Assembly: GCF_001457615.1 (NCBI RefSeq)
Contig: NZ_LN831024.1
Coordinates: 5,970,001-6,002,000 of the forward strand
Source of the DNA: Pseudomonas aeruginosa
Lineage (GTDB): Bacteria; Pseudomonadota; Gammaproteobacteria; Pseudomonadales; Pseudomonadaceae
Reading direction: 5' to 3'
DNA length: 32,000 nucleotides
Position 1 is the stretch's first letter. Every line of letters begins with the position of its first letter. The position numbers and the translations under genes were made by a program. The notes below the pieces were generated by a model. It saw nothing but the letters and a program-made list of their open reading frames with translations. It did not search any database and was not told the DNA's origin. Below are positions 5,345 to 21,518 of this stretch, piece by piece.

Positions 5345-6739
5345 ATGAGCGTAGAGAAGACCAACCAGTCCTGGGGCGGCCGCTTCAGCGAGCCCGTCGA
5401 CGCCTTCGTCGCCCGTTTCACCGCCTCCGTCGACTTCGACAAGCGTCTCTACCGCCACGACATCATGGGTTCCATCGCCCACGCCACGATGCTGGCCAAG
5501 GTCGGCGTGCTGAGCGACGCCGAGCGCGATGCGATCGTCGACGGCCTGCAACAGATCCAGGCGGAAATCGAAGCCGGCAGCTTCGACTGGCGCGTCGACC
5601 TGGAAGACGTGCACATGAACATCGAGGCGCGCCTGACCGACCGCATCGGCGTCACCGGCAAGAAGCTCCACACCGGCCGCTCGCGCAACGACCAGGTGGC
5701 CACCGACATCCGCCTCTGGCTACGCGACGAGATCGACACCATCCTCGCCGAGATCACCCGCCTGCAGGAGGGCCTGCTGGGCCTGGCCGAAGCGGAAGCC
5801 GACACCATCATGCCCGGTTTCACCCACCTGCAGACCGCCCAGCCGGTGACCTTCGGCCACCACCTGCTGGCCTGGTTCGAGATGCTCGGCCGAGACTACG
5901 AGCGCCTGGTCGACTGCCGCAAGCGGGTCAACCGCATGCCGCTCGGCTCGGCGGCCCTGGCCGGCACCACCTACCCGATCCAGCGCGAGATCACCTGCCA
6001 GTTGCTGGGCTTCGACGCGGTTGGCGGCAACTCCCTGGACGGCGTCTCCGACCGCGACTTCGCCATCGAATTCTGCGCCGCCGCCAGCCTGGCGATGATG
6101 CACCTGTCGCGCTTCTCGGAAGAGCTGGTGCTGTGGACCAGCGCGCAGTTCCAGTTCATCGACCTGCCCGACCGCTTCTGCACCGGCTCCTCGATCATGC
6201 CGCAGAAGAAGAACCCCGACGTGCCGGAGCTGGTACGCGGCAAGTCCGGCCGGGTGTTCGGCGCCCTCACCGGCTTGCTGACCCTGATGAAGGGCCAGCC
6301 GCTGGCCTACAACAAGGACAACCAGGAAGACAAGGAACCGCTGTTCGACGCCGCCGACACCCTGCGCGATAGCCTGCGCGCCTTCGCCGACATGGTCCCG
6401 GCGATCCGGCCCCGGCGCGAGATCATGCGCGAGGCGGCACGCCGCGGTTTCTCCACCGCCACCGACCTGGCGGACTACCTGGTGCGCAAGGGCCTGCCGT
6501 TCCGCGACTGCCACGAGATCGTCGGCCACGCAGTGAAGTACGGCGTAGACAGCGGCAAGGACCTCGCCGAGATGAGCCTCGACGAACTGCGCCGCTTCAG
6601 CGAGCAGATCGACGCCGACGTCTTCGACGTGCTGACCCTGGAAGGCTCGGTCAACGCCCGCGACCATATCGGCGGCACCGCGCCGAACCAGGTCCGTGCC
6701 GCCGTCGCCCGCGGCAGAAAACTGCTGGCACAGCGCTGA
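5345..6739 (+). CDS. argH: argininosuccinate lyase
   Basis: The track ORF was trimmed to ATG 5345 ([22 protein letters not shown]...), giving 464 aa. Contains the fumarate-lyase signature [12 protein letters not shown]. Confidence 0.97.
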
Positions 6740-6882
6740 AGTCGCGCCCAGTGCCCGGCAGATCTTCCTGTCCTACCCGAGACTTGATCACACGGCGGGA
6801 CAGGAACGCCCTTGTAGATCGACAGCCACTCTAGTGAAAGTCCTTCTTCGCTAACCGGTCGCAATGGCGGAATAACTCAGCA

Positions 6883-8088
6883 TCAGTGCTCATCATTGAA
6901 ATCATCGGCCCTGGGCGTGGCAAAAATGCCCTTGGCTTCCTGGCGCCGGTAATAGGCTTCGATGCTTAGCCCGGGATCGATGCGCGCCCTGACGATGCAG
7001 GGCTGCTGTTGCCAGGGATACTCATGCAGGCGTCGGTCCAGCTCCTTGCGCTCCTTGGCTGGCCAGCCCTGGTAGGTGCGCTGGCGCCAGTAATGGGGAT
7101 CGCGTCCGGTATGCCGATCATGCTCGGCGGTGACCGGATCCAAGGGGCGGCTCGGCTCCAGGACCGGCAGGTCGGGCAACGGCTGGGTCACGTCCATGTA
7201 GCGTTGCAGGCAGTCCCAGAAGGCCAGGGCATTGACCTTGTCGAGACCGAGGGAGTGGACGCGGGTGGCCAGACAGACCTTGTTGTCGGTATAGCGGTGA
7301 TGCAACCAGAGCGCATAGTCGTGGCTGCCGTAGCCACTGGGCAGCAATTGCAGCACCGGATCGAACTCGTCGAAGGGAGCGACGAACAGGCGGCGGAAGC
7401 GACGCTTGAAGCGGAGCATGCCGTCCAGGCGATTGAATTCACTGCCATCTTGCTTGAAGACTTTGCTGTAGAGCCAAAGGATGGCGCTGAAGCCGACTGC
7501 ACCCATAAAATAAGTAGCTACGCCTATCCAAATTGCTATTTGCAAACCATTGGTTCCAAATATTGTTCCATACTGGTACAAAGCCAATGGGATTGAAAAT
7601 AAAAAACCCGACATCTGAATAACGTGAAGATATTTTTTATTCGAAAGAAAGGCCACCATGGATATTACTGAAACAGCCACCACAAAGAATGAGCAAACCA
7701 AGGTGTAGAGTTGCTGTATGTCCCTCCTCCACTCTCCGGTGGCTTCTCCCATTATGCCAATTCCCAAAGCAATCCATACAAAAAAATAGCACAGCATCCT
7801 AAGCGTGAATATTATATAAGGAATTCTGCTAGAGTTCTGGAACTGCCAACGCATAGAGTTGCAATATGCCTCAGCACCTCCAACCTCTGACTTATCCTCA
7901 GCCCCGATCGAAAGCTGCCCTACAATCTCCATTTCCGGATCTAGATTGGCATAGTTCCCAAAGGCAAGATGGGTGTCAAAAATACCATTACGGTTAGACT
8001 CCTCCTTCCACCTTGGCGGCGGTAAAGAGTCGTTGACTTCACTGCGATAAGCACTGGCTGAGTACGTGGCATCCATGTGTACAGTCAT
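6883..8088 (-). CDS. polytopic inner-membrane protein, candidate immunity protein for the upstream T6SS effector
   Basis: 401-aa ORF whose ATG (8088) overlaps the effector stop (tcat at 8085-8088). Four hydrophobic helices at about aa 89-207 and a W/H/R/Y-rich C-terminal domain of about 190 aa. It is the last gene of the hcp-vgrG-effector string. Its 5' half has low GC. Confidence 0.7.
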   Translation of the reverse strand: MTVHMDATYSASAYRSEVNDSLPPPRWKEESNRNGIFDTHLAFGNYANLDPEMEIVGQLSIGAEDKSEVGGAEAYCNSMRWQFQNSSRIPYIIFTLRMLCYFFVWIALGIGIMGEATGEWRRDIQQLYTLVCSFFVVAVSVISMVAFLSNKKYLHVIQMSGFLFSIPLALYQYGTIFGTNGLQIAIWIGVATYFMGAVGFSAILWLYSKVFKQDGSEFNRLDGMLRFKRRFRRLFVAPFDEFDPVLQLLPSGYGSHDYALWLHHRYTDNKVCLATRVHSLGLDKVNALAFWDCLQRYMDVTQPLPDLPVLEPSRPLDPVTAEHDRHTGRDPHYWRQRTYQGWPAKERKELDRRLHEYPWQQQPCIVRARIDPGLSIEAYYRRQEAKGIFATPRADDFNDEH

Positions 8089-11000
8089 ACGTTGAACTCA
8101 CTGTTCTCTATCAACCAATAAGGTGGCGCAGCATGGGGGCCCAAGTCGTCCGGGGGAAGGTACCGATTGGCGGATGTGAATGCACTCCAACTCTTCGGGC
8201 TGGGTTGAGGCAGGACAAGCCGCTGCTCAGGCTGGTCGGCATTGAGTTCGAACTGTGCGCTGATCTTCAAACCCTGGGTCATGCGCATGCTATAGCGGGC
8301 CCGAGGAGACAACTGCGGAATCGGCAGGCTGGCCGGCAGCACATAGAGCACGCTGGCAGCATCCAACGGCAAGGCTTCGAGCTTGGCGGGGCCCGCGGGG
8401 ACCCGATGGTAGCGCTTGACGCCGAACAGGGTGCCCGGATCGATCGGCAAGCTGCTGAGAAACTCCTGGGCCACCAGGCGGAACGCCTTCTGGCCATTCT
8501 CGAACATGGCCAGGAGCGGGGAACTCAGCACCACGGCCCAATCGTTTGCCTCCAGCGCCTGCAACTTGGGGTCGATGCAGGATAGCGCAGTGCGGCTGAC
8601 CGCTTGGCGACCCCGTTCCGCTTCCTGCAAGACAGATCGATGCGCCGCCGGCGCCAATTTGCGCCAGTCTTCCAGGCGATGGACAAAGACCCGCGGATGG
8701 CCGAGGACTCCCAGCAATTGGCGATAGGCCGTTTGCGGGTCTTTCAGATGGGCGAAGCGCTGGTCCTGGCCCATCAGCGAATCGAGCAGGCCAGCCTCGG
8801 CGAATTGCCGGCCGAAGGGGCCTTTCTTTACGATGGTTTCCGCATCGCTGTCAGTCAGTAGATTAGCGACCACAGTGCCTCCGATCGCCAAAACCGCACC
8901 AGCCAGCAAAGCATAAGGGTTTACTATCCATCCTAGGACGTAGGCACCCCAAAGGCCCCCACCCACTGCGGCCACACCGTAGGCCGCAGCCGCATCGCTA
9001 TCTCCCTGCCTCAAAGCTCGGTAGCCATCCCATACACTGATGCCTGCACCGAATAGTGTGGCTGCGCCACCAAGCCCACGTAGCAACCCTAACTTAGGGC
9101 TGCCTGTTTGAACTTCTAGATTCCTGGCCCATCGAGGGGATATTTGGGCTACCGATATACGTGGGGTTTCTAGATACTTTGCAGTAGATGGTCCGAAAAG
9201 CAGCTTTGCATGGCTTCCTCCAGCGGCTGTTAAATCGATTACTGCACCGACAGCCCCGATCGTCCCTCTGTGCTTTTCTCCACTGTCTACAAAGCCACTG
9301 TATGCCTGCACCTGCACATTCAAGTTATAAATCGCAAACCCCAGCATCATCGTCGGCACGATGCGAGTGTTCTCCATCACCTGGGTCAACGTGCCTAACT
9401 GCGTACGGAATTTCGTGTAGGCAAGCAGGTCCGGGTGATCCTTGGGTACCGCCACCACCATGACGTTGCGCAGGTTGGCGCGACTCATGCCGGTGTCGCG
9501 GGGACTGGTGCCGGCCAGGGGATTGCCGGCACCGTCCTGAACGATGGCGCGCCGATAGCTCTTGCGCCTCAGCTCCTGGCGCTCGACCTCGGTCAGACCG
9601 TTGCGCAGGCCGGCTCCGCGCACGCCGACGACAACCATGTCGAGCGGCACCTGACTGTCGGGCAGCAGGCGGATACCTTTCATCTTCACCGAGAGGGCGC
9701 TCAGAGTATTGAAGGTCGGTGCGAACAAGCGGTCGAGCTGGATCTGGGTGGCGCCCTGGGACAGCCGGCCGAGTTGCTCGACTACGCTGGCGCCGAACAC
9801 GTCCAGCAGGTCGCCGAGGAAGTAGGCGAGGCTCTTGCCGGCGCTGGGCTGGTCGACCTCGCCCAGCAGACTGGCTCCCAGCATCAGCGTGCTGAGGCCC
9901 ATTGCGTCGGGGTCCGGCGTCCGCGGGCTATCGCGCAGCGCCTGCAGGCGCCGAACCGGCTCGGGAAGTTGTCCTTCGTCCTTGGCCAGGAGCATGGCGC
10001 CAAGCGGGTGGCTTGCCTGCAGAACCGTGCTGACCACCCGCTCGACATGTGCCGCCAGCGCCCGGTAGGCGGTACCGCTGTACAGTGCGTCGCAGCGGTC
10101 GGGAAGCTGGTTCAGCGCAGCCAGTGCCTCGCTCATCAGGCTGTAGGGCTCCAGCAGGGCTTCGTCGCACTGGTGGGTCCAGTCCTGCAACACCGGGTGC
10201 AAGGGGCCTTCCAGCAGGGCAACCAGATGCTCGACCTGCTGCGTCAGGTGGATTCGGCAAGACTGTCGCTCCTCGGCGAAGATCGCCTCGTCCAGTTCGG
10301 CCTGATCGACCTCGCCCCTGAGCTTGGCGAGCGGGCCGTCGAGCATGTTGCTCAGCACCTGTGCATAGCGTCCGTTGGGACGGTGCGGCAGCAGTGCATT
10401 GAGGCTGCGCAAGTAGGCGGCGCAGTGGCGCGCCTGCGCCGCAGCGTGGCGCAAGGCGAACAGCGAGTCGTCGAGCATCAGCCCGATGAGGTTGGGATGG
10501 CCACGCAGCTTGAGGGTTTCCAGTACGTCCTCTCCGGCTTCCAGAGTAGGTAGCGCAGAGGGCGGAGCCTGCTTCAGCAGGGGCGCCAATTCCTGCTGGC
10601 GTCGCTGCAACTGGCACACCAGCGACTCTTCGCGAAAGGCGGCGAACGCAGGTGTGAATTCCGCCGGGTCTTCCAGCGCGCTCTCGACGTTGAAGTCGCG
10701 AGGTCGCAAACCCTGGGCGTGATGATCAATGACCAGCGCGGGTTGATGGATGGAGGCTTTCCAGTGCTGGTTGGCCACCGAGGCGTTCCAAGCGGACGCC
10801 ATCTGCTGGCAGCGCCGGTTGACCCGCTGCGGGTCCTCCTCCAGCCAGTCGATGTACGACCAAGGCCAGGGAGTTTCGCTATAGGCCATGGTGTAGCGTG
10901 GGATCACGAACTGCCCCTTGACCAGCACCGGCACCAGGATCAGCGCTTGTGTCTTGCCTACGGCCGGACGCTTGTCCGCACGCTGGCTGCGCCCCTGCAG

Positions 11001-11354
11001 GAGATCGACTTCGAACAGGTTGCCCTTGCCATCACATTCCAGTTCGCGCCACAACTTGCCGTCCTGGAACAGGTAGATCCGTCCCGCCCGCGGTAGCGCG
11101 CCGGCGGGCAGCTGGTCGCCATAACCGGCCTTGCCCAGCGTTGGCAGGCGGACCAGCGGCATCACAGCCAGGAAGGTGTTCTGCTGGATACGCTCGTGCT
11201 CCTCATGGCCGAGCATATCGCTGGCCACCGGAATCTGCAGGATACCGCCGTCCTGTCGCTCGACGTTCAATGCCAGTCGTGCACGCCGATCGTTCTGGTA
11301 GGCGGTGCGCTTGCGCACGCCTTCGTCGATACTCTGGTCCTGGAATCCGCTCAT
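8085..11354 (-). CDS. large T6SS cargo effector candidate, VasX-like membrane-targeting toxin
   Basis: 1089-aa ORF whose ATG (11354) overlaps the vgrG stop (11351-11354). The N-terminal 200 aa (..AGRIYLFQDGKLWRELECDGKGNLFEV..ILVPV..TMAYSETPWPWSYIDWLEED..) resembles, from memory, the VasX N-terminal / BTH_I2691-family effector region. Gly/Ala-rich hydrophobic helices cluster at aa 665-832 (GLGGAATLFGAGISVW, AAYGVAAVGGGLWGAYVLGWIV, LLAGAVLAIGGTVVANLL). I recognised no catalytic motif. Confidence 0.7.
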   Translation of the reverse strand: MSGFQDQSIDEGVRKRTAYQNDRRARLALNVERQDGGILQIPVASDMLGHEEHERIQQNTFLAVMPLVRLPTLGKAGYGDQLPAGALPRAGRIYLFQDGKLWRELECDGKGNLFEVDLLQGRSQRADKRPAVGKTQALILVPVLVKGQFVIPRYTMAYSETPWPWSYIDWLEEDPQRVNRRCQQMASAWNASVANQHWKASIHQPALVIDHHAQGLRPRDFNVESALEDPAEFTPAFAAFREESLVCQLQRRQQELAPLLKQAPPSALPTLEAGEDVLETLKLRGHPNLIGLMLDDSLFALRHAAAQARHCAAYLRSLNALLPHRPNGRYAQVLSNMLDGPLAKLRGEVDQAELDEAIFAEERQSCRIHLTQQVEHLVALLEGPLHPVLQDWTHQCDEALLEPYSLMSEALAALNQLPDRCDALYSGTAYRALAAHVERVVSTVLQASHPLGAMLLAKDEGQLPEPVRRLQALRDSPRTPDPDAMGLSTLMLGASLLGEVDQPSAGKSLAYFLGDLLDVFGASVVEQLGRLSQGATQIQLDRLFAPTFNTLSALSVKMKGIRLLPDSQVPLDMVVVGVRGAGLRNGLTEVERQELRRKSYRRAIVQDGAGNPLAGTSPRDTGMSRANLRNVMVVAVPKDHPDLLAYTKFRTQLGTLTQVMENTRIVPTMMLGFAIYNLNVQVQAYSGFVDSGEKHRGTIGAVGAVIDLTAAGGSHAKLLFGPSTAKYLETPRISVAQISPRWARNLEVQTGSPKLGLLRGLGGAATLFGAGISVWDGYRALRQGDSDAAAAYGVAAVGGGLWGAYVLGWIVNPYALLAGAVLAIGGTVVANLLTDSDAETIVKKGPFGRQFAEAGLLDSLMGQDQRFAHLKDPQTAYRQLLGVLGHPRVFVHRLEDWRKLAPAAHRSVLQEAERGRQAVSRTALSCIDPKLQALEANDWAVVLSSPLLAMFENGQKAFRLVAQEFLSSLPIDPGTLFGVKRYHRVPAGPAKLEALPLDAASVLYVLPASLPIPQLSPRARYSMRMTQGLKISAQFELNADQPEQRLVLPQPSPKSWSAFTSANRYLPPDDLGPHAAPPYWLIENSEFNV

Positions 11355-13426
11355 GCCTCGCGCTCCGGTGGCAACAGTACGACCTGGCTTCCTTGCGCCG
11401 GGTCTCCCCAGACATCGACGATCAATTGTTCCGGCCCCTTCCGCTCGGGACGGCTACGCGCCGGGTTGTCCAGTACCTGGCCCGCTGTCGCCGCATCCGC
11501 GTCGAGCGGCGGCCCCGGCAACAGCGGCGCCGCGCCGCTGCCGTTGCCCGGGCTGCCGCCGGAGTTGACCCGGACGTTGGCCCCGGAGAGGGTCACGCCG
11601 CTGGCGTCGAGCTTGAGGAAGCTGCCGCCGCCCTTGAGGGTCAGTTCGGCGCCGGCCTCCAGCACCACCTTCAGACCGCTGCTCAGGTGGATCTCCTGGC
11701 CGGCCTCGACGAACTGGCCGCTGGCGATCTTCAGGTGCTGGTCGTTGGCTACGGTGAGGTGGTCGCTGGCTCGGACCTCCACCTTGCGCTCGGCGTGGGT
11801 GGTGCGGTGTTCCTCGGCCTTGAACTCGCTGTAGCTGTTCGCCTGCACGGTGTCGTGGCGTTGGTGACCGACGCGGATCTTCTGGTCGTGCTCGATGTTT
11901 TCGTCCCAGTCGCGCTGGGCATGGACGAAGATCTGCTCCTGGCCCTTGCGGTCCTCGATGCGCAGCTCGTTGTAGCCACCGCCGCCAGGGCTGCTGAGGC
12001 TCTTGAAGACGCTGCGGGTCTTGTGCCCCGGCAGTTCGTAGGGCACCGGATGTTCCCTGTGAAACAGGCAGCCGGTGACCAGCGGCTGGTCGGGATCGCC
12101 TTCGAGGAAGGTCACCAGCACCTCCATGCCGACCCGCGGGATGGCGATGGCACCGTAGTTCCTTCCCGCCCAGCCGGAGGCAACGCGTAACCAGCAACTG
12201 CTGCTGTCGTCGGCCTGGCCCTCGCGATCCCAGTGGAATTGCACCTTCACCCGACCGTAGCGATCGCAGTGGATTTCCTCGCCCTTCGGGCCGGTCACCA
12301 CCGCGCTCTGCGTGCCGAGGATGCGCGGCTTCGGCGGCGTCAGCGGGGGACGGAAGAACGCCTCCCAGGGCGTGGCCTGGAAGCGGTTGCGGTAACCCTG
12401 CCGGAAGTCGTCCGGGCTCGCCGAGGCATCGGAGACGATGCTTTCCTCCAGCACCTGAGGCTGCCGCCCCTCGTGAATCACCTCAGTGAGCAGCCAGAGG
12501 TCGTTCCAGCCCGCCTGGGGATGGGCGGCCAGCGGCAGGAAGTGGCCGCTGAGCAGCAACGGTTGGTCGCTGCGGCCCTCGGCCAGGCGGTAGTCGCTGC
12601 GCTGCCGTTCGAGGGCACGCCTGGCCAGGTGCTTGCCGCGCTCGCGGTCGACGAAGCGACCGGGATAGTCGTAGTCCTCGAGGTCCGGCCGGGCTTCGCC
12701 GCGGGCGGCGCTTTCCAGCGTCAGGCGCGGTTTCTCGAAGTCGTAGTCGCGGCGGGTGACGCGGCTGGTGCGGGTTTCCAGGCGTACGCCGAAGCGCTTG
12801 ACCGCCGGCCGGTCGGCGACCAGGCCGGAGTCCTGCTGGTAGGCCACCGGCGCGAGCCGCGGGAACACCGTCTGGTCGTCGCCGAACACCAGCAGGTGCG
12901 CCGTGGCGCTGTGCTGGAAATGAAAGTGGATGCCCTCCTCGCAGCACAGGCGCTGGATGAACTGCAGGTCGCTCTCGTCGTACTGCACGCAGTATTCGCG
13001 CTCGGGGTAGCGGGTGCCGAGCTGGAAGCGGTAGGCGTCGGGGAGGATGCCGTGTTCCTCCAGCACCCGGCCGACGATCTGCGGCACCGTGAGGTGCTGG
13101 AAGATGCGCTGGTTGGTGCGCTGGGCGAGGTAGGCCAGTTGCGGGACGAGGGTGATGCGGTAGCGGGTCAGGCGCTTGCCCGAGTCGCCCTGTCCGGCGC
13201 TGCGCACCAGGCCGTGGATACCGTTGCCGGCGGGCCCGAGGGTAAGGAAGGCGGGTTTGTGCAGCAGGCTTTCGAGGTCCGGCACGGGGCGTTCGCCGAC
13301 CAGCTCCAGGTCGAAGGCGAACGGCTGGCTGATGGCTTCGCGGCCGCTGAAGGAGAGCACCTGCAGGTCGAGGGCGAGGCCGTCGATGGCGAGGCTGAAA
13401 TGGGTCTGGTTGGCTGCTGCGAACAT
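11351..13426 (-). CDS. vgrG6: T6SS spike protein VgrG
   Basis: The track ORF was trimmed to ATG 13426 (MFAAANQTHFSLAIDGLALDLQVLSFSGREAISQPFAFDLELV...), giving 691 aa. The gp27/gp5-like core includes WAGRNYGAIAIPRVGMEVLVTFLEGDPDQPLVTGCLFH and C-terminal beta-helix repeats. It follows hcp. The symbol is assigned by synteny with PAO1 PA5266. Confidence 0.9.
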   Translation of the reverse strand: MFAAANQTHFSLAIDGLALDLQVLSFSGREAISQPFAFDLELVGERPVPDLESLLHKPAFLTLGPAGNGIHGLVRSAGQGDSGKRLTRYRITLVPQLAYLAQRTNQRIFQHLTVPQIVGRVLEEHGILPDAYRFQLGTRYPEREYCVQYDESDLQFIQRLCCEEGIHFHFQHSATAHLLVFGDDQTVFPRLAPVAYQQDSGLVADRPAVKRFGVRLETRTSRVTRRDYDFEKPRLTLESAARGEARPDLEDYDYPGRFVDRERGKHLARRALERQRSDYRLAEGRSDQPLLLSGHFLPLAAHPQAGWNDLWLLTEVIHEGRQPQVLEESIVSDASASPDDFRQGYRNRFQATPWEAFFRPPLTPPKPRILGTQSAVVTGPKGEEIHCDRYGRVKVQFHWDREGQADDSSSCWLRVASGWAGRNYGAIAIPRVGMEVLVTFLEGDPDQPLVTGCLFHREHPVPYELPGHKTRSVFKSLSSPGGGGYNELRIEDRKGQEQIFVHAQRDWDENIEHDQKIRVGHQRHDTVQANSYSEFKAEEHRTTHAERKVEVRASDHLTVANDQHLKIASGQFVEAGQEIHLSSGLKVVLEAGAELTLKGGGSFLKLDASGVTLSGANVRVNSGGSPGNGSGAAPLLPGPPLDADAATAGQVLDNPARSRPERKGPEQLIVDVWGDPAQGSQVVLLPPEREA

Positions 13427-13625
13427 CCGTTGTCCCTCACTGGCGCAGGCGACCGATTCGATTGTCCTGCCTGGCGCGGGCGAGACAAGGGCGCGCAGGC
13501 TCGATCGGAAGCTGCCTACAACAAACAAAGCGGCATCGACCCGGCGCGGGCTTTCCTGGCCACGGCGCTATGGGTCATCGAGGGCACGACGGCCAGCGAG
13601 GCTGGCCGCGTGCGGCGGTCGCGGC

Positions 13626-14144
13626 TCAGCCGGCGACCGGGGAGCGCCAGTCGTCGGAGCCGGAGGTGCCGGAGACTTCGTGGGTCCAGGTGATCTTGCG
13701 GTAGGTGAAGTGCACGTCTTCCAGGTGGGTGAAGTGGGCGTTGCCCGGGTCCTGGCAGTTGTGCATGTAGTCCTTGATGTCGACGATGATCGCGTCTTCC
13801 AGGACGGTGGTGTAGTAGTGCTCCTGGGTGCCGGCGGCGGAGGTGCGGTACCACTGGATCTCCACCTTGGTCAGGCGCTCGCCGGAGGTCAGGGCGGCCA
13901 GCAGCAGCGGCGAGGCCTTGTCGAAGACCTTGGTGATGACCACCGGCTTGTGCACGCGCTGGCCGGTCGGCTGGCCGGACTGCGGGTCGCGCGGGATGAT
14001 CACTTCGTGGTTGAAGCCCTGGACCATCACCTGGTCCTCGTGGCCTTCCTGGTAGGTGTTGCCGACCGAATCCTCGGTGAAGGCGCCGGCGGTGATCAGG
14101 CCCTGCTTGGTGCCGGTGATGGACATATAGGCGGGGGTTGCCAT
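13626..14144 (-). CDS. hcpB: T6SS tube protein Hcp
   Basis: The track ORF was trimmed to ATG 14144 (MATPAYMSITGTKQGLITAGAFTEDSVGNTYQEGHEDQVMVQGF...), giving 172 aa. This is a typical Hcp (TssD) sequence lying directly upstream of vgrG. Confidence 0.93.
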   Translation of the reverse strand: MATPAYMSITGTKQGLITAGAFTEDSVGNTYQEGHEDQVMVQGFNHEVIIPRDPQSGQPTGQRVHKPVVITKVFDKASPLLLAALTSGERLTKVEIQWYRTSAAGTQEHYYTTVLEDAIIVDIKDYMHNCQDPGNAHFTHLEDVHFTYRKITWTHEVSGTSGSDDWRSPVAG

Positions 14145-14202
14145 GGATGCATTCCTTGTCAGTGGTAGCCGGGACGACATGTCCTGGTGCGGCAGCTACC
14201 CA

Positions 14203-14217
14203 ACAAGCTTCGTGCCA
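14203..14217 (-). promoter_or_regulatory. sigma54-like -24/-12 promoter element upstream of hcpB
   Basis: The minus strand reads TGGCACGAAGCTTGT, against the consensus TGGCAC-N5-TTGC. The -24 half is perfect and the -12 GC is replaced by GT. It lies about 60 nt upstream of the hcpB ATG. Confidence 0.4.
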
Positions 14218-14236
14218 ATAAAATATTTACCTTTTA

Positions 14237-14249
14237 AATCAAACTCTTG
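14237..14249. promoter_or_regulatory. IHF-like site (WATCAANNNNTTR) just upstream of the sigma54-like element
   Basis: The plus strand reads AATCAAACTCTTG, matching the IHF core consensus at every specified position. It sits in an AT-rich patch 20-35 bp upstream of the -24 element. Confidence 0.35.
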
Positions 14250-14295
14250 AAGAATCTCCCGGCCCGCACGAACGCTTTCCCCTGGGTTTACCCCG

Positions 14296-14342
14296 AAAAA
14301 GTGAGCAAGTTGTTGCACAGTGCTATGCAAAAACTTGCTCAC
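14296..14342 (-). terminator. rho-independent terminator of corA
   Basis: GTGAGCAAGTT (14301-14311) pairs with AACTTGCTCAC (14332-14342). The stem is extended by TTGCA/TGCAA across one mismatch and closes an 8-nt loop. On the minus strand a TTTTT run follows (14296-14300). The element is about 95 nt downstream of the corA stop. Confidence 0.7.
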
Positions 14343-14436
14343 TTCATCGAAGACCCCGTCAGGCCTTGGCCCCAGCGTGGTATCCACAGCTTTTCCCGAA
14401 GTTATCCAGCAAAAAGTTGCACACCTGCCGAGTGCC

Positions 14437-15417
14437 TCAGAGCCAGTTCTTGAACTTGAACCAGAGGTACGGAAGGATCGCCGATACCACCATCATCCCC
14501 AGCGCCATCGGATAGCCGATGGACCAGTCCAGCTCGGGCATGTCCTTGAAGTTCATGCCGTAGACCGTGCCCACCAGGGTCGGCGGCAGGAACAGTACGG
14601 CGGCGATGGAGAACACCTTGATGATGCTGTTCTGCTCGATGTTGATCAGGCCAAGGGTCGCGTCGAGGAGGAAGTTGATCTCGGTGGACATCTTCGCCAG
14701 GTACTCGTCCAGCGAGCGCACATCGCGCTCCACGGTCTTCGCCAGCACCTTGGCCGGCTCGGAAAGCCAGCCGTTGCAACCCTGGCGGAAATAGCTGTTC
14801 ATCCGATTGATGCTGAGCAGGCTGTCGTTGAGCTTGGACAGCAGCGAGCTGCTGCGCCCGAGGTGCTTGATGATCTGCTGCAGGTCGGTCTTCGGCTTGC
14901 GGGTCTGGGCGGTGGACTCGGCGAAGATCTCCCGCGACATGCTGCTCAGTTGCCCCTGTACGGCCTCCAACACGTCGGCGATGCGGTCCACCAGGCTGTC
15001 CATCATCAGGGCGAACAACTGGGTGCTGCTGCGGTTGGCGTCGAGCTGGCGGATGCAGCGGTTCTCGAACTCGCGGAACGAACGCAGGTCGGCGTAGCGC
15101 ACGGTAATCAGCCATTTCTCGCTGAGGACGAAGGTCACTTCCTCTGTGCTCGGCCGGTGCTCGGTGATCCCGCCGACCACCGAAGTGGTCATGTAGAGGA
15201 CGTTGCCGTCCTCGTAGAAGCGCGACGAATCCTCGATCTCGGCCATCTCCTCGCGGGTCGGGATGTTCACCTGCAGGTGGGATTCGAGCAGGCGCTCCTC
15301 TTCGGGGGTCGGGTGATGCAGGTCGATCCACAGGGTGCCCGGCGGCAACCCCCGCTGGGCATCGTCGTGCTGGCGTCGCTCCAGGCGGTCGCCGGAAAGG
15401 ATGTAATAGGTGATCAT
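14437..15417 (-). CDS. corA: magnesium/cobalt transporter CorA
   Basis: Contains the C-terminal YGMNF (GMN) motif and two TM helices, and ends ..LWFKFKNWL. The start was chosen at ATG 15417 (MITYYILSGDRLERR..), which aligns with the E. coli CorA N-terminus. An upstream ATG at 15444 is also possible. Confidence 0.9.
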   Translation of the reverse strand: MITYYILSGDRLERRQHDDAQRGLPPGTLWIDLHHPTPEEERLLESHLQVNIPTREEMAEIEDSSRFYEDGNVLYMTTSVVGGITEHRPSTEEVTFVLSEKWLITVRYADLRSFREFENRCIRQLDANRSSTQLFALMMDSLVDRIADVLEAVQGQLSSMSREIFAESTAQTRKPKTDLQQIIKHLGRSSSLLSKLNDSLLSINRMNSYFRQGCNGWLSEPAKVLAKTVERDVRSLDEYLAKMSTEINFLLDATLGLINIEQNSIIKVFSIAAVLFLPPTLVGTVYGMNFKDMPELDWSIGYPMALGMMVVSAILPYLWFKFKNWL

Positions 15418-21173: not shown

Positions 21174-21239
21174 GATCGCAGGCGTGCTCCTTGGTCCGGT
21201 TCGGTTGATCGATGAAAAGCAGGAATCGCAAAAAAGCAA

Positions 21240-21274
21240 AAACCCCGCCCGAAGGCGGGGTTTTCCCGGACACT
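21240..21274 (-). terminator. rho-independent terminator after the cyaY / small Cys-rich gene unit
   Basis: CCCCGCC (21253-21259), loop CGAA, GGCGGGG (21264-21270). On the minus strand the stem is followed by TTTTTGCTTTTTTG, and on the plus strand by TTTT. Confidence 0.75.
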
Positions 21275-21308
21275 AACACAGTCGCAGGAATTAGCAACAT
21301 CCCCCCTA

Positions 21309-21518
21309 TCAGGAGAGACGGCCCGCCAGCGACTGGCGTCGAGCGGCCTGTGACCTGATCTGCAAGCGGCGGGAATCGTCGGCCTTGCCCCACTCGCGGA
21401 TTTCCGCCAGGGAACGTCCGCAGCCGACGCAAACGTCCGCATCGTCGAGGCAGCACAGGCGCCGGCAAGGCGAGGCCACCGCCGGCGGCGAAGCCTCAGA
21501 GGCCGGGGAACTCGACAT
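21309..21518 (-). CDS. small Cys-rich protein, DUF1289-like (putative Fe-S/metal-binding)
   Basis: 69 codons from ATG 21518: MSSSPASEASPPAVASPCRRLCCLDDADVCVGCGRSLAEIREWGKADDSRR... The SPC..C.LD...C.GC.R...EI..W pattern matches my memory of DUF1289. The start lies inside the last 23 nt of cyaY. Confidence 0.6.
   Translation of the reverse strand: MSSSPASEASPPAVASPCRRLCCLDDADVCVGCGRSLAEIREWGKADDSRRLQIRSQAARRQSLAGRLS

Follow-up and report, generated by a model that had tools for sequence, protein, structure and literature searches.

The cargo effector of an hcpB-vgrG6 island in Pseudomonas aeruginosa: likely identity with PA5265 (TpeX, TspE1b) and placement among the membrane-depolarising VasX/BTH_I2691-family toxins

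The closest described counterparts of the locus analysed here are type VI secretion system (T6SS) toxins, namely VasX of Vibrio cholerae, Tke5 of P. putida, Ptx2 of other P. aeruginosa strains and PA5265 of P. aeruginosa PAO1. PA5265 has been catalogued, with PA5264 as its partner, as an effector bearing a MIX motif, and it ranks in the top two H2-T6SS toxins for potency on sensitised prey (PMC10281587). It was named TspE1b (PMC9846239) and counted among the accessory effectors; it and TspE1c/Ptx2 exclude each other at this locus, and recombination swaps one for the other along with the immunity gene and the 3' end of vgrG6 (PMC11751169). In August 2026, a preprint renamed PA5265 TpeX (bioRxiv 10.64898/2026.08.24.746647). 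Here, a stretch of 32,000 nucleotides (nt) from a P. aeruginosa genome (assembly GCF_001457615.1, contig NZ_LN831024.1, positions 5,970,001 to 6,002,000 of the forward strand), hereafter called the window, was analysed with a focus on one large open reading frame (ORF). With a probability of about 0.93, this ORF at 8085-11354 is PA5265 (TpeX, TspE1b), the cargo effector of the hcpB-vgrG6 island and a membrane-depolarising toxin of the VasX/BTH_I2691 family. The gene, its family, the predicted pore module, the immunity partner and the membrane-depolarising activity are all already known from the literature, and TpeX is an already characterised protein and one of the more potent toxins that the P. 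aeruginosa H2-T6SS has against bacteria.

Identity and published activity of the effector

The ORF was confirmed on the minus strand, where it starts with ATG and encodes 1089 amino acids (AA). Its product has 100% identity to a cluster of P. aeruginosa proteins that comprises 3430 sequences, and the computed mass of 119.15 kDa compares with 119.2 kDa published for PA5265. The island has the gene order hcp, vgrG, effector and a 401-AA membrane protein, all on the minus strand. It is flanked on one side by hemD, hemC, an algR-like LytTR-type response regulator, a fimS-like sensor with a His_kinase domain and argH, and on the other side by cyaA (class I adenylate cyclase), lysA, dapF and xerC. 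The same neighbourhood surrounds the orphan vgrG6 island (PA5264-PA5267) on the map of PAO1. Based on the neighbours, the matching mass and the cluster identity, the ORF was therefore identified as PA5265. Translational coupling links tpeX to both neighbours, vgrG6 upstream and the membrane-protein gene tpiX (PA5264) downstream, with an overlap of 4 nt (ATGA) between the vgrG6 stop and the tpeX start and another of 4 nt (ATGA) between the tpeX stop and the tpiX start.

According to the preprint, periplasm-targeted TpeX is bactericidal in E. coli, with toxicity seen only for the signal-sequence fusion, and flow cytometry shows that the protein dissipates the membrane potential (DiOC2(3)) and admits propidium iodide (PI) (bioRxiv 10.64898/2026.08.24.746647). 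The same work reports that TpeX forms at least dimers, that E. coli prey is lysed to a lesser degree by a delta-tpeX mutant, and that the fragments 742-1089 and 742-840, the latter targeted to the periplasm, are equally, if partially, toxic (bioRxiv 10.64898/2026.08.24.746647). Fragment 742-1089 is no more toxic than 742-840, and the C-terminal domain is dispensable for heterologous toxicity. An earlier note on this DNA, made from the sequence alone, had read the ORF as a candidate effector with segments typical of pore-forming or membrane-depolarising toxins; this reading is supported by the published depolarisation, the PI uptake, the toxicity of 742-840 and the immunity function of PA5264. 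The measurements of membrane potential and permeability and the truncations proposed in that note are essentially covered by the published TpeX experiments.

No DUF4123 domain was found by Pfam among the scanned neighbours, and the gene overlaps leave no adaptor ORF. The DUF4123 adaptor gene (VasW / Tap) is a common accessory and not a defining trait of VasX/BTH_I2691 toxins, and adaptor-less loading is described as a trait of PAO1-type strains (bioRxiv 10.64898/2026.08.24.746647). Because no DUF4123 gene is present, the MIX domain is proposed to dock directly on the C-terminus of VgrG6. The H2-T6SS would fire the loaded spike into the periplasm of a neighbouring cell, where the shielded hydrophobic helices could be released and insert into the membrane from the periplasmic side. 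The inserted helices may then oligomerise to an ion-conducting pore, which would collapse the proton motive force, while the C-terminal beta-sandwich probably helps to tether or orient TpeX on the membrane, in the way shown for the beta-rich domain of Tke5.

Alternatively, TpeX could disrupt the membrane without a defined oligomeric pore, either in a detergent-like or carpet-type manner or by hijacking an inner-membrane receptor complex, so that depolarisation and PI entry would be downstream effects. A distant relative, Bte2, hijacks the Rnf complex as a receptor. PI entry, cell debris and the release of beta-galactosidase speak of gross permeabilisation and lysis, unlike what is seen for Tke5, only dimers of TpeX have been observed, and its pore model needed added ligands for confidence. 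In addition, the C-terminal beta-sandwich is subfamily-specific in sequence, as a receptor-binding part would be. However, in E. coli as a heterologous host, periplasm-targeted fragment 742-840 is toxic by itself and the C-terminal domain adds no further toxicity, and VasX, Ptx2 and Tke5 have all been described as formers of ion-permeable channels. Disruption without a pore is considered unlikely, and the formation of a pore by TpeX is preferred.

Family membership and domain architecture

TpeX carries the N-terminal MIX motifs (shhPhR, hRxGhhYhh, hhF/YSxxxWS/T), of which the central one is listed in Table 1 and the third, AYSETPWPWS, covers residues 157-166. In an alignment of 39 homologues from Pseudomonas and relatives with 39-92% identity, the residues R89, G91, Y94, F96, W102, R103, E104, S159, E160, W163 and W165 are invariant. 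A domain of the MIX-I type has also been reported for PA5265 (PMC9846239; bioRxiv 10.64898/2026.08.24.746647). All peptide strings named in the earlier note were found in the translation, namely AGRIYLFQDGKLWRELECDGKGNLFEV at residues 90-116, ILVPV at 138-142, MAYSETPWPWSYIDWLEED at 156-174, GLGGAATLFGAGISVW at 760-775 and AAYGVAAVGGGLWGAYVLGWIV at 790-811. Its proposal of a VasX-like N-terminus is borne out by the MIX motif, by matches of the VasX_N model in homologues, by the fold match to Ptx2 and by the profile match to Tke5.

The N-terminal region also bears on the target of the toxin. The preprint proposes a PH-like domain at residues 60-296 (bioRxiv 10.64898/2026.08.24.746647). If this were a lipid-binding domain directed at eukaryotic membranes, TpeX could primarily be an anti-host or anti-amoeba effector, as VasX is against Dictyostelium. 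In line with this idea, VasX acts across kingdoms and the H2-T6SS has anti-eukaryotic effectors. However, the same region is the MIX domain, which binds the adaptor or the spike in Ptx2 and Tke5. Furthermore, the adjacent immunity gene is essential and both sensitised P. aeruginosa and E. coli are killed, pointing to an antibacterial role. A mainly eukaryotic target is thus regarded as rather improbable, and TpeX is treated here as an antibacterial effector.

Good support for membership in the VasX/BTH_I2691 family comes from the fold, the genetic context and transitive sequence evidence, despite two missed thresholds of curated models. The Pfam model VasX_N (PF20249) matches 11 of the 39 homologues (best E-value 3.6e-7) and six of eight sampled remote relatives, two of which reach the gathering score of 27 bits (P0254 with 46.4 bits and P0139 with 29.9 bits). 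The NCBIfam model BTH_I2691_fam (NF041559) matches residues 656-850 of TpeX with an E-value of 1.6e-11, covering model positions 652-837 only, and also matches all eight remote relatives, at 42-74 bits only. A profile search against 1.84 billion representative sequences retrieved 443 relatives with E-values of at most 1e-3, mostly 1000-1500 AA in length. Over its positions 766-1084, a profile of 65 sequences that includes the remote relatives matches Tke5 (9r8g_A) with an E-value of 8.8e-6, and an alignment was also obtained for the MIX core. By comparison, the profile of the 39 homologues yielded only chance matches against the PDB (E-values of 0.24 and above) and did not reach Tke5. The context agrees with the family, as the effector is encoded downstream of hcp-vgrG and is followed by the gene of a polytopic membrane protein.

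The fold was assessed with an AlphaFold2 model of the whole protein, which has a mean predicted local distance difference test (pLDDT) score of 70 and a predicted template modelling (pTM) score of 0.65. In a Foldseek search of the PDB with this model, the cryo-electron microscopy (cryo-EM) structure of Ptx2 (9qpv) was the only match with an E-value of at most 1e-3 (E-value 2.7e-8, probability 1.00, 14% identity). In the TpeX models, the order of secondary structures agrees with that of Ptx2 and Tke5: a MIX domain, a helical scaffold enclosing a hydrophobic module, and an immunoglobulin (Ig)-like C-terminal domain.

The Gly/Ala-rich hydrophobic module of residues 661-840 is the toxic, probably membrane-inserting part of TpeX. 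Five helices are placed there by AlphaFold2 (670-690, 694-720, 757-782, 786-806 and 813-833), in agreement with the four or five hydrophobic Gly/Ala-rich segments that had been noted in residues 665-832, whose mapping to nt 8859-9362 is arithmetically right. The mean hydropathy climbs from 0.5 to 1.75 along these helices, the last two of which are the most hydrophobic, and the 19-residue Kyte-Doolittle mean exceeds 1.4 in residues 793-835 only. In the literature, three transmembrane (TM) helices were predicted within residues 742-840 (bioRxiv 10.64898/2026.08.24.746647) and a pore-forming helical bundle at residues 644-840 (PMC9846239). The Gly/Ala enrichment suggested from the sequence holds, as these residues make up 30% of residues 661-835 compared to 17-18% in the rest of TpeX, but the proposed GxxxG/GxxxA spacing does not stand out from it. 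The 26 small-xxx-small motifs in residues 661-835, compared to about 8 per 175 AA elsewhere in TpeX, were reached by none of 2000 shuffles with the composition of the whole protein, but by 8% of shuffles within the region. A glycine-zipper register beyond composition was therefore rejected.

Another question is whether this module could be a true homologue of the pore domain of colicin A, colicin Ia or pyocin S5 fused to a MIX domain, in other words a T6SS pyocin. The resemblance reported in the literature is weak, with an HHpred probability of 54% and Phyre2 values of 66-69% for residues 742-840 and 757-840 against colicin A, colicin Ia and pyocin S5 (bioRxiv 10.64898/2026.08.24.746647; PMC9846239). 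These matches favour such an origin, and an immunity protein with three to four TM helices would also fit, since the immunity proteins of A-type colicins are alike in this respect. In contrast, a colicin or pyocin pore domain was recovered neither by Pfam at an E-value of 10 nor by profile searches of the PDB nor within the first 50 matches of Foldseek, so that the colicin comparison suggested in the earlier note did not reveal any similarity detectable with these methods. Homology to colicins is accordingly disfavoured and considered very unlikely. In its mode of action TpeX resembles a pore-forming colicin, yet it ought not to be classed as a colicin-domain homologue.

The C-terminal region after the module contains an invariant GPFG (845-848), short helices and then a beta-sandwich from about residue 936 (nt 8088-8549). 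The soluble domain that had been postulated behind the membrane module was thus found, but it is not extra with regard to the VasX family since Ptx2 and Tke5 share this layout. In both, the scaffold returns and is then followed by a terminal Ig-like beta-sandwich, and the beta-rich domain of Tke5 binds membranes and is dispensable for toxicity. From these architectures, the idea of the C-terminal 257 AA as an addition to the VasX-family plan was rejected; the C-terminal domain of TpeX is family-typical in kind. In sequence it is subfamily-specific, as most remote relatives align only up to profile position 900-910. A Foldseek search of the PDB with the separate C-terminal model gave no match with an E-value of at most 1e-3; the matches beyond this threshold were limited to beta-sandwich proteins of a generic kind, such as arrestin (0.014) and the cytoplasmic domain of KirBac, and to Ptx2 (0.033 over 109 columns). 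The putative Ig-like assignment is based on the model topology and on analogy, and a role in membrane or receptor tethering is our best guess.

Several points weigh against the assignment of TpeX as a pore-forming VasX/BTH_I2691 toxin of the H2-T6SS. TpeX itself matches no Pfam family even at an E-value of 10, VasX_N included, and its score of 43.5 bits against NF041559 stays below the curated cut-off of 150 bits. Due to these direct misses, the family assignment is based on transitive and structural evidence. The miss of VasX_N can be attributed to the sensitivity of the model since homologues and remote relatives match it, and NF041559 appears to be narrow because all eight remote relatives also score only in the range given above. 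The global TM-score to Ptx2 is low (0.28-0.30), with a root-mean-square deviation of 30 Å. We infer that this is due to a different placement of the hydrophobic module and the domains; such a difference has already been described between the cryo-EM structure and AlphaFold models of Ptx2. Besides the lack of colicin similarity by Pfam, PDB profile and Foldseek, the experimental TpeX paper is a preprint. Its support for a pore consists only of dimers on semi-native gels and of AlphaFold 3 and Boltz-2 models, lysis may be secondary, and the evidence that delivery in PAO1 depends on the H2-T6SS is indirect (bioRxiv 10.64898/2026.08.24.746647).

Immunity, allelic variation and island context

The downstream gene tpiX encodes a protein with three to four strongly hydrophobic helices, of which those at residues 88-118, 123-152 and 181-208 were located. 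It has no Pfam or NCBIfam family. TspI1b was described as an immunity protein with four TM helices (PMC9846239), and TpiX partly protects against TpeX and binds it (bioRxiv 10.64898/2026.08.24.746647). The start of TpiX is ambiguous: the ATG overlapping the effector stop gives 401 AA (46.4 kDa), one paper states about 37.9 kDa, and in one genome fragments of 209 AA were called.

A rarer allele of the effector with 1084 AA and 91% identity to TpeX was found in P. aeruginosa, where it forms small clusters. Three loci with this allele (L001, 6001-13143 of CP176811.1; L002, 264-8216; and L003) were compared to positions 6883-11354 of the window. The differences between the alleles are unevenly distributed, with 36 of 97 differences and an indel of 5 AA falling in residues 651-750. 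The nonsynonymous divergence (dN) of this patch is 0.22 compared to 0.01-0.04 elsewhere, and its ratio to the synonymous divergence (dS) is 0.32 compared to 0.05-0.11. Among the 39 homologues, conservation is likewise lowest in this patch (37% identity), which is also the least confidently modelled region. The dS between the alleles is 0.34-0.69 over most of tpeX and 0.11 in residues 841-1089, an unevenness that indicates a recombinant mosaic history.

In strains with the 1084-AA allele, the effector gene is followed by three to four tandem immunity paralogues with identities of 80%, 64%, 75% and, in one contig, 91% to the copy in the window, which carries a single immunity gene. The differences between the cognate immunity proteins are concentrated in residues 51-225, comprising a loop and TM helices (window 7414-7938). 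Residues 1-50 of TpiX are nearly identical between the alleles. These patterns suggest that specificity is determined in the toxin by the helices ahead of its transmembrane domain (pre-TMD helices) and in the immunity protein by the membrane part, and that strains with the minor allele keep orphan immunity genes. A low-confidence AlphaFold 3 model places the contact between TpeX and its immunity protein on the N-terminal region 56-197 (bioRxiv 10.64898/2026.08.24.746647), whereas the variable patch points to the pre-TMD helices of residues 651-750. It is therefore conceivable, as a tentative proposal held at less than even odds, that P. aeruginosa carries at least two TpeX immunity groups whose specificity resides in these helices and in the membrane part of the immunity protein. 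If true, immunity specificity would be read out at or inside the membrane on the pre-TMD helices, and strains with the minor allele would accumulate orphan immunity genes to counter the majority allele. Term searches revealed no mention of such genes for this locus in the main text of the two population papers, whose supplements may hold such information. The rarer allele with its immunity arrays is a side observation that is possibly new.

The coordinates of all features are summarised in Table 1. The longest ORF of hcpB encodes 184 AA, whereas 172 AA were called in the related genome with L001, and the ATG at 14144, giving 172 AA, is likely the start. The longest ORF of vgrG6 encodes 725 AA; the corresponding call of 689 AA would place the start near 13420.

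Table 1. Features of the hcpB-vgrG6 island and of its effector in the window (all on the minus strand)
Feature	Position (nt)	Strand	Evidence
tpiX / tspI1b / PA5264, 401-AA inner-membrane immunity protein	6883..8088	-	ORF, hydropathy; immunity function from the literature
tpeX / tspE1b / PA5265, 1089-AA VasX (BTH_I2691)-family effector	8085..11354	-	cluster identity, mass, fold, profile
C-terminal region, residues 841-1089	8088..8834	-	separate AlphaFold2 model of residues 836-1089, pLDDT 86, pTM 0.83
Gly/Ala-rich hydrophobic helical module, residues 661-840	8835..9374	-	composition, AlphaFold2, NF041559, profile match to the Tke5 TMD
Allele-variable patch, residues 651-750, before and entering the hydrophobic module	9105..9404	-	difference count, dN, conservation, pLDDT < 50
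Alpha-helical scaffold, residues 261-660, with well-predicted bundle 297-555	9375..10574	-	AlphaFold2 pLDDT 80-94 over residues 300-490; aligned to Ptx2 scaffold by Foldseek
N-terminal MIX domain, residues ~27-260, beta-sheets and short helices	10575..11276	-	regular expression, conservation, VasX_N in homologues, AlphaFold2
Central MIX motif PRAGRIYLF, residues 88-96	11067..11093	-	regular expression match
vgrG6, spike	11351..13528	-	Pfam Phage_GPD, Phage_base_V, Gp5_trimer_C; TIGR03361 E-value 6e-204
hcpB, Hcp2-type tube protein	13626..14180	-	Pfam T6SS_HCP E-value 9.8e-38; TIGR03344 E-value 1.6e-72
Sigma-54-like -24/-12 element TGGCACGAAGCTTGT	14203..14217	-	~60 nt upstream of the probable hcpB start

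The element TGGCACGAAGCTTGT has one mismatch to TGGCAC-N5-TTGC and is the probable RpoN/Sfa2 promoter of the island. Near-matches to the sigma-54 consensus occur in the window at chance level, so its position is the sole argument for it. This position agrees with the published RpoN/Sfa2 control of hcp2-vgrG islands, and RpoN is reported to have binding sites upstream of hcp2 homologues in the vgrG6 island (PMC8855297). A scan of positions 6600-14600 for the sigma-70 consensus and for intrinsic terminators found neither. Internal promoters in the island that were predicted by BPROM (bioRxiv 10.64898/2026.08.24.746647) were not reproduced by this stricter sigma-70 consensus scan.

The G+C content of the window is 66%. 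Within 7001-10000 it drops to 52% over tpiX and about 61% over the 3' two-thirds of tpeX, with 65-70% in the flanking genes. This drop is consistent with the reported recombinational exchange of effector and immunity gene as one module with the vgrG6 3' end. Megablast gave no match to plasmids, and nothing points to an origin from a plasmid. Long antisense ORFs of 315-413 AA lie on the effector (9435-10553, plus strand), on argH (5720-6667, minus strand) and on vgrG (10949-12190, plus strand). These ORFs are probably spurious and due to the high G+C content; the one at 5720-6667, the only one scanned, had no family match. The sole Rfam family above the gathering score in the window is rnk_pseudo, the Pseudomonas rnk leader, at 21230-21331 on the minus strand (75.5 bits).

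Comparison with known systems

TpeX differs from the pore-forming colicins A and Ia and pyocin S5, to which no sequence or fold relationship could be detected by Pfam, PDB profile or Foldseek. Colicins are imported via a receptor and the Tol or Ton system, whereas TpeX is delivered by the T6SS and, unlike in colicins, its hydrophobic module sits inside a much larger scaffold.

Within the BTH_I2691 family, Tke5 of P. putida (9r8g) is linked to TpeX by the profile match described above, which covers the hydrophobic module and the region that follows it. For killing by Tke5 the alpha region suffices; its beta-rich Ig-like C-terminus binds membranes and is dispensable. However, depolarisation by Tke5 occurs with no major damage to the membrane, whereas entry of PI and lysis of cells are reported for TpeX, and Tke5 requires the adaptor Tap3, whereas the TpeX locus is without an adaptor gene.

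In other strains of P. aeruginosa, Ptx2/TspE1c (PA14_69520, 9qpv) is encoded at this chromosomal locus, and it shares with TpeX the domain order of MIX domain, helical scaffold, buried hydrophobic module and Ig-like C-terminal domain. Despite this, both proteins have only about 14% identity and were reported to be too divergent to align. They also belong to different MIX clans (IV for Ptx2 and I for TpeX), and Ptx2 needs the DUF4123 adaptor Tap6, for which the TpeX locus has no counterpart gene.

VasX (VCA0020) of Vibrio cholerae resembles TpeX in its similar length, its MIX-I N-terminus and its C-terminal hydrophobic helices. Its locus is likewise linked to hcp-vgrG with a downstream membrane immunity gene, and it dissipates the membrane potential. 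In AFDB-SwissProt, VasX is the top Foldseek match of TpeX, with an E-value of 9.4e-13 (bioRxiv 10.64898/2026.08.24.746647). The two differ in that VasX uses the adaptor VasW and that the Pfam model VasX_N does not match TpeX itself.

Finally, the comparison with TpeX/TspE1b of PAO1 indicates the same protein. Identity, mass and the neighbours hcpB, vgrG6, PA5264 and argH are alike, and at the tested level both loci show no difference.

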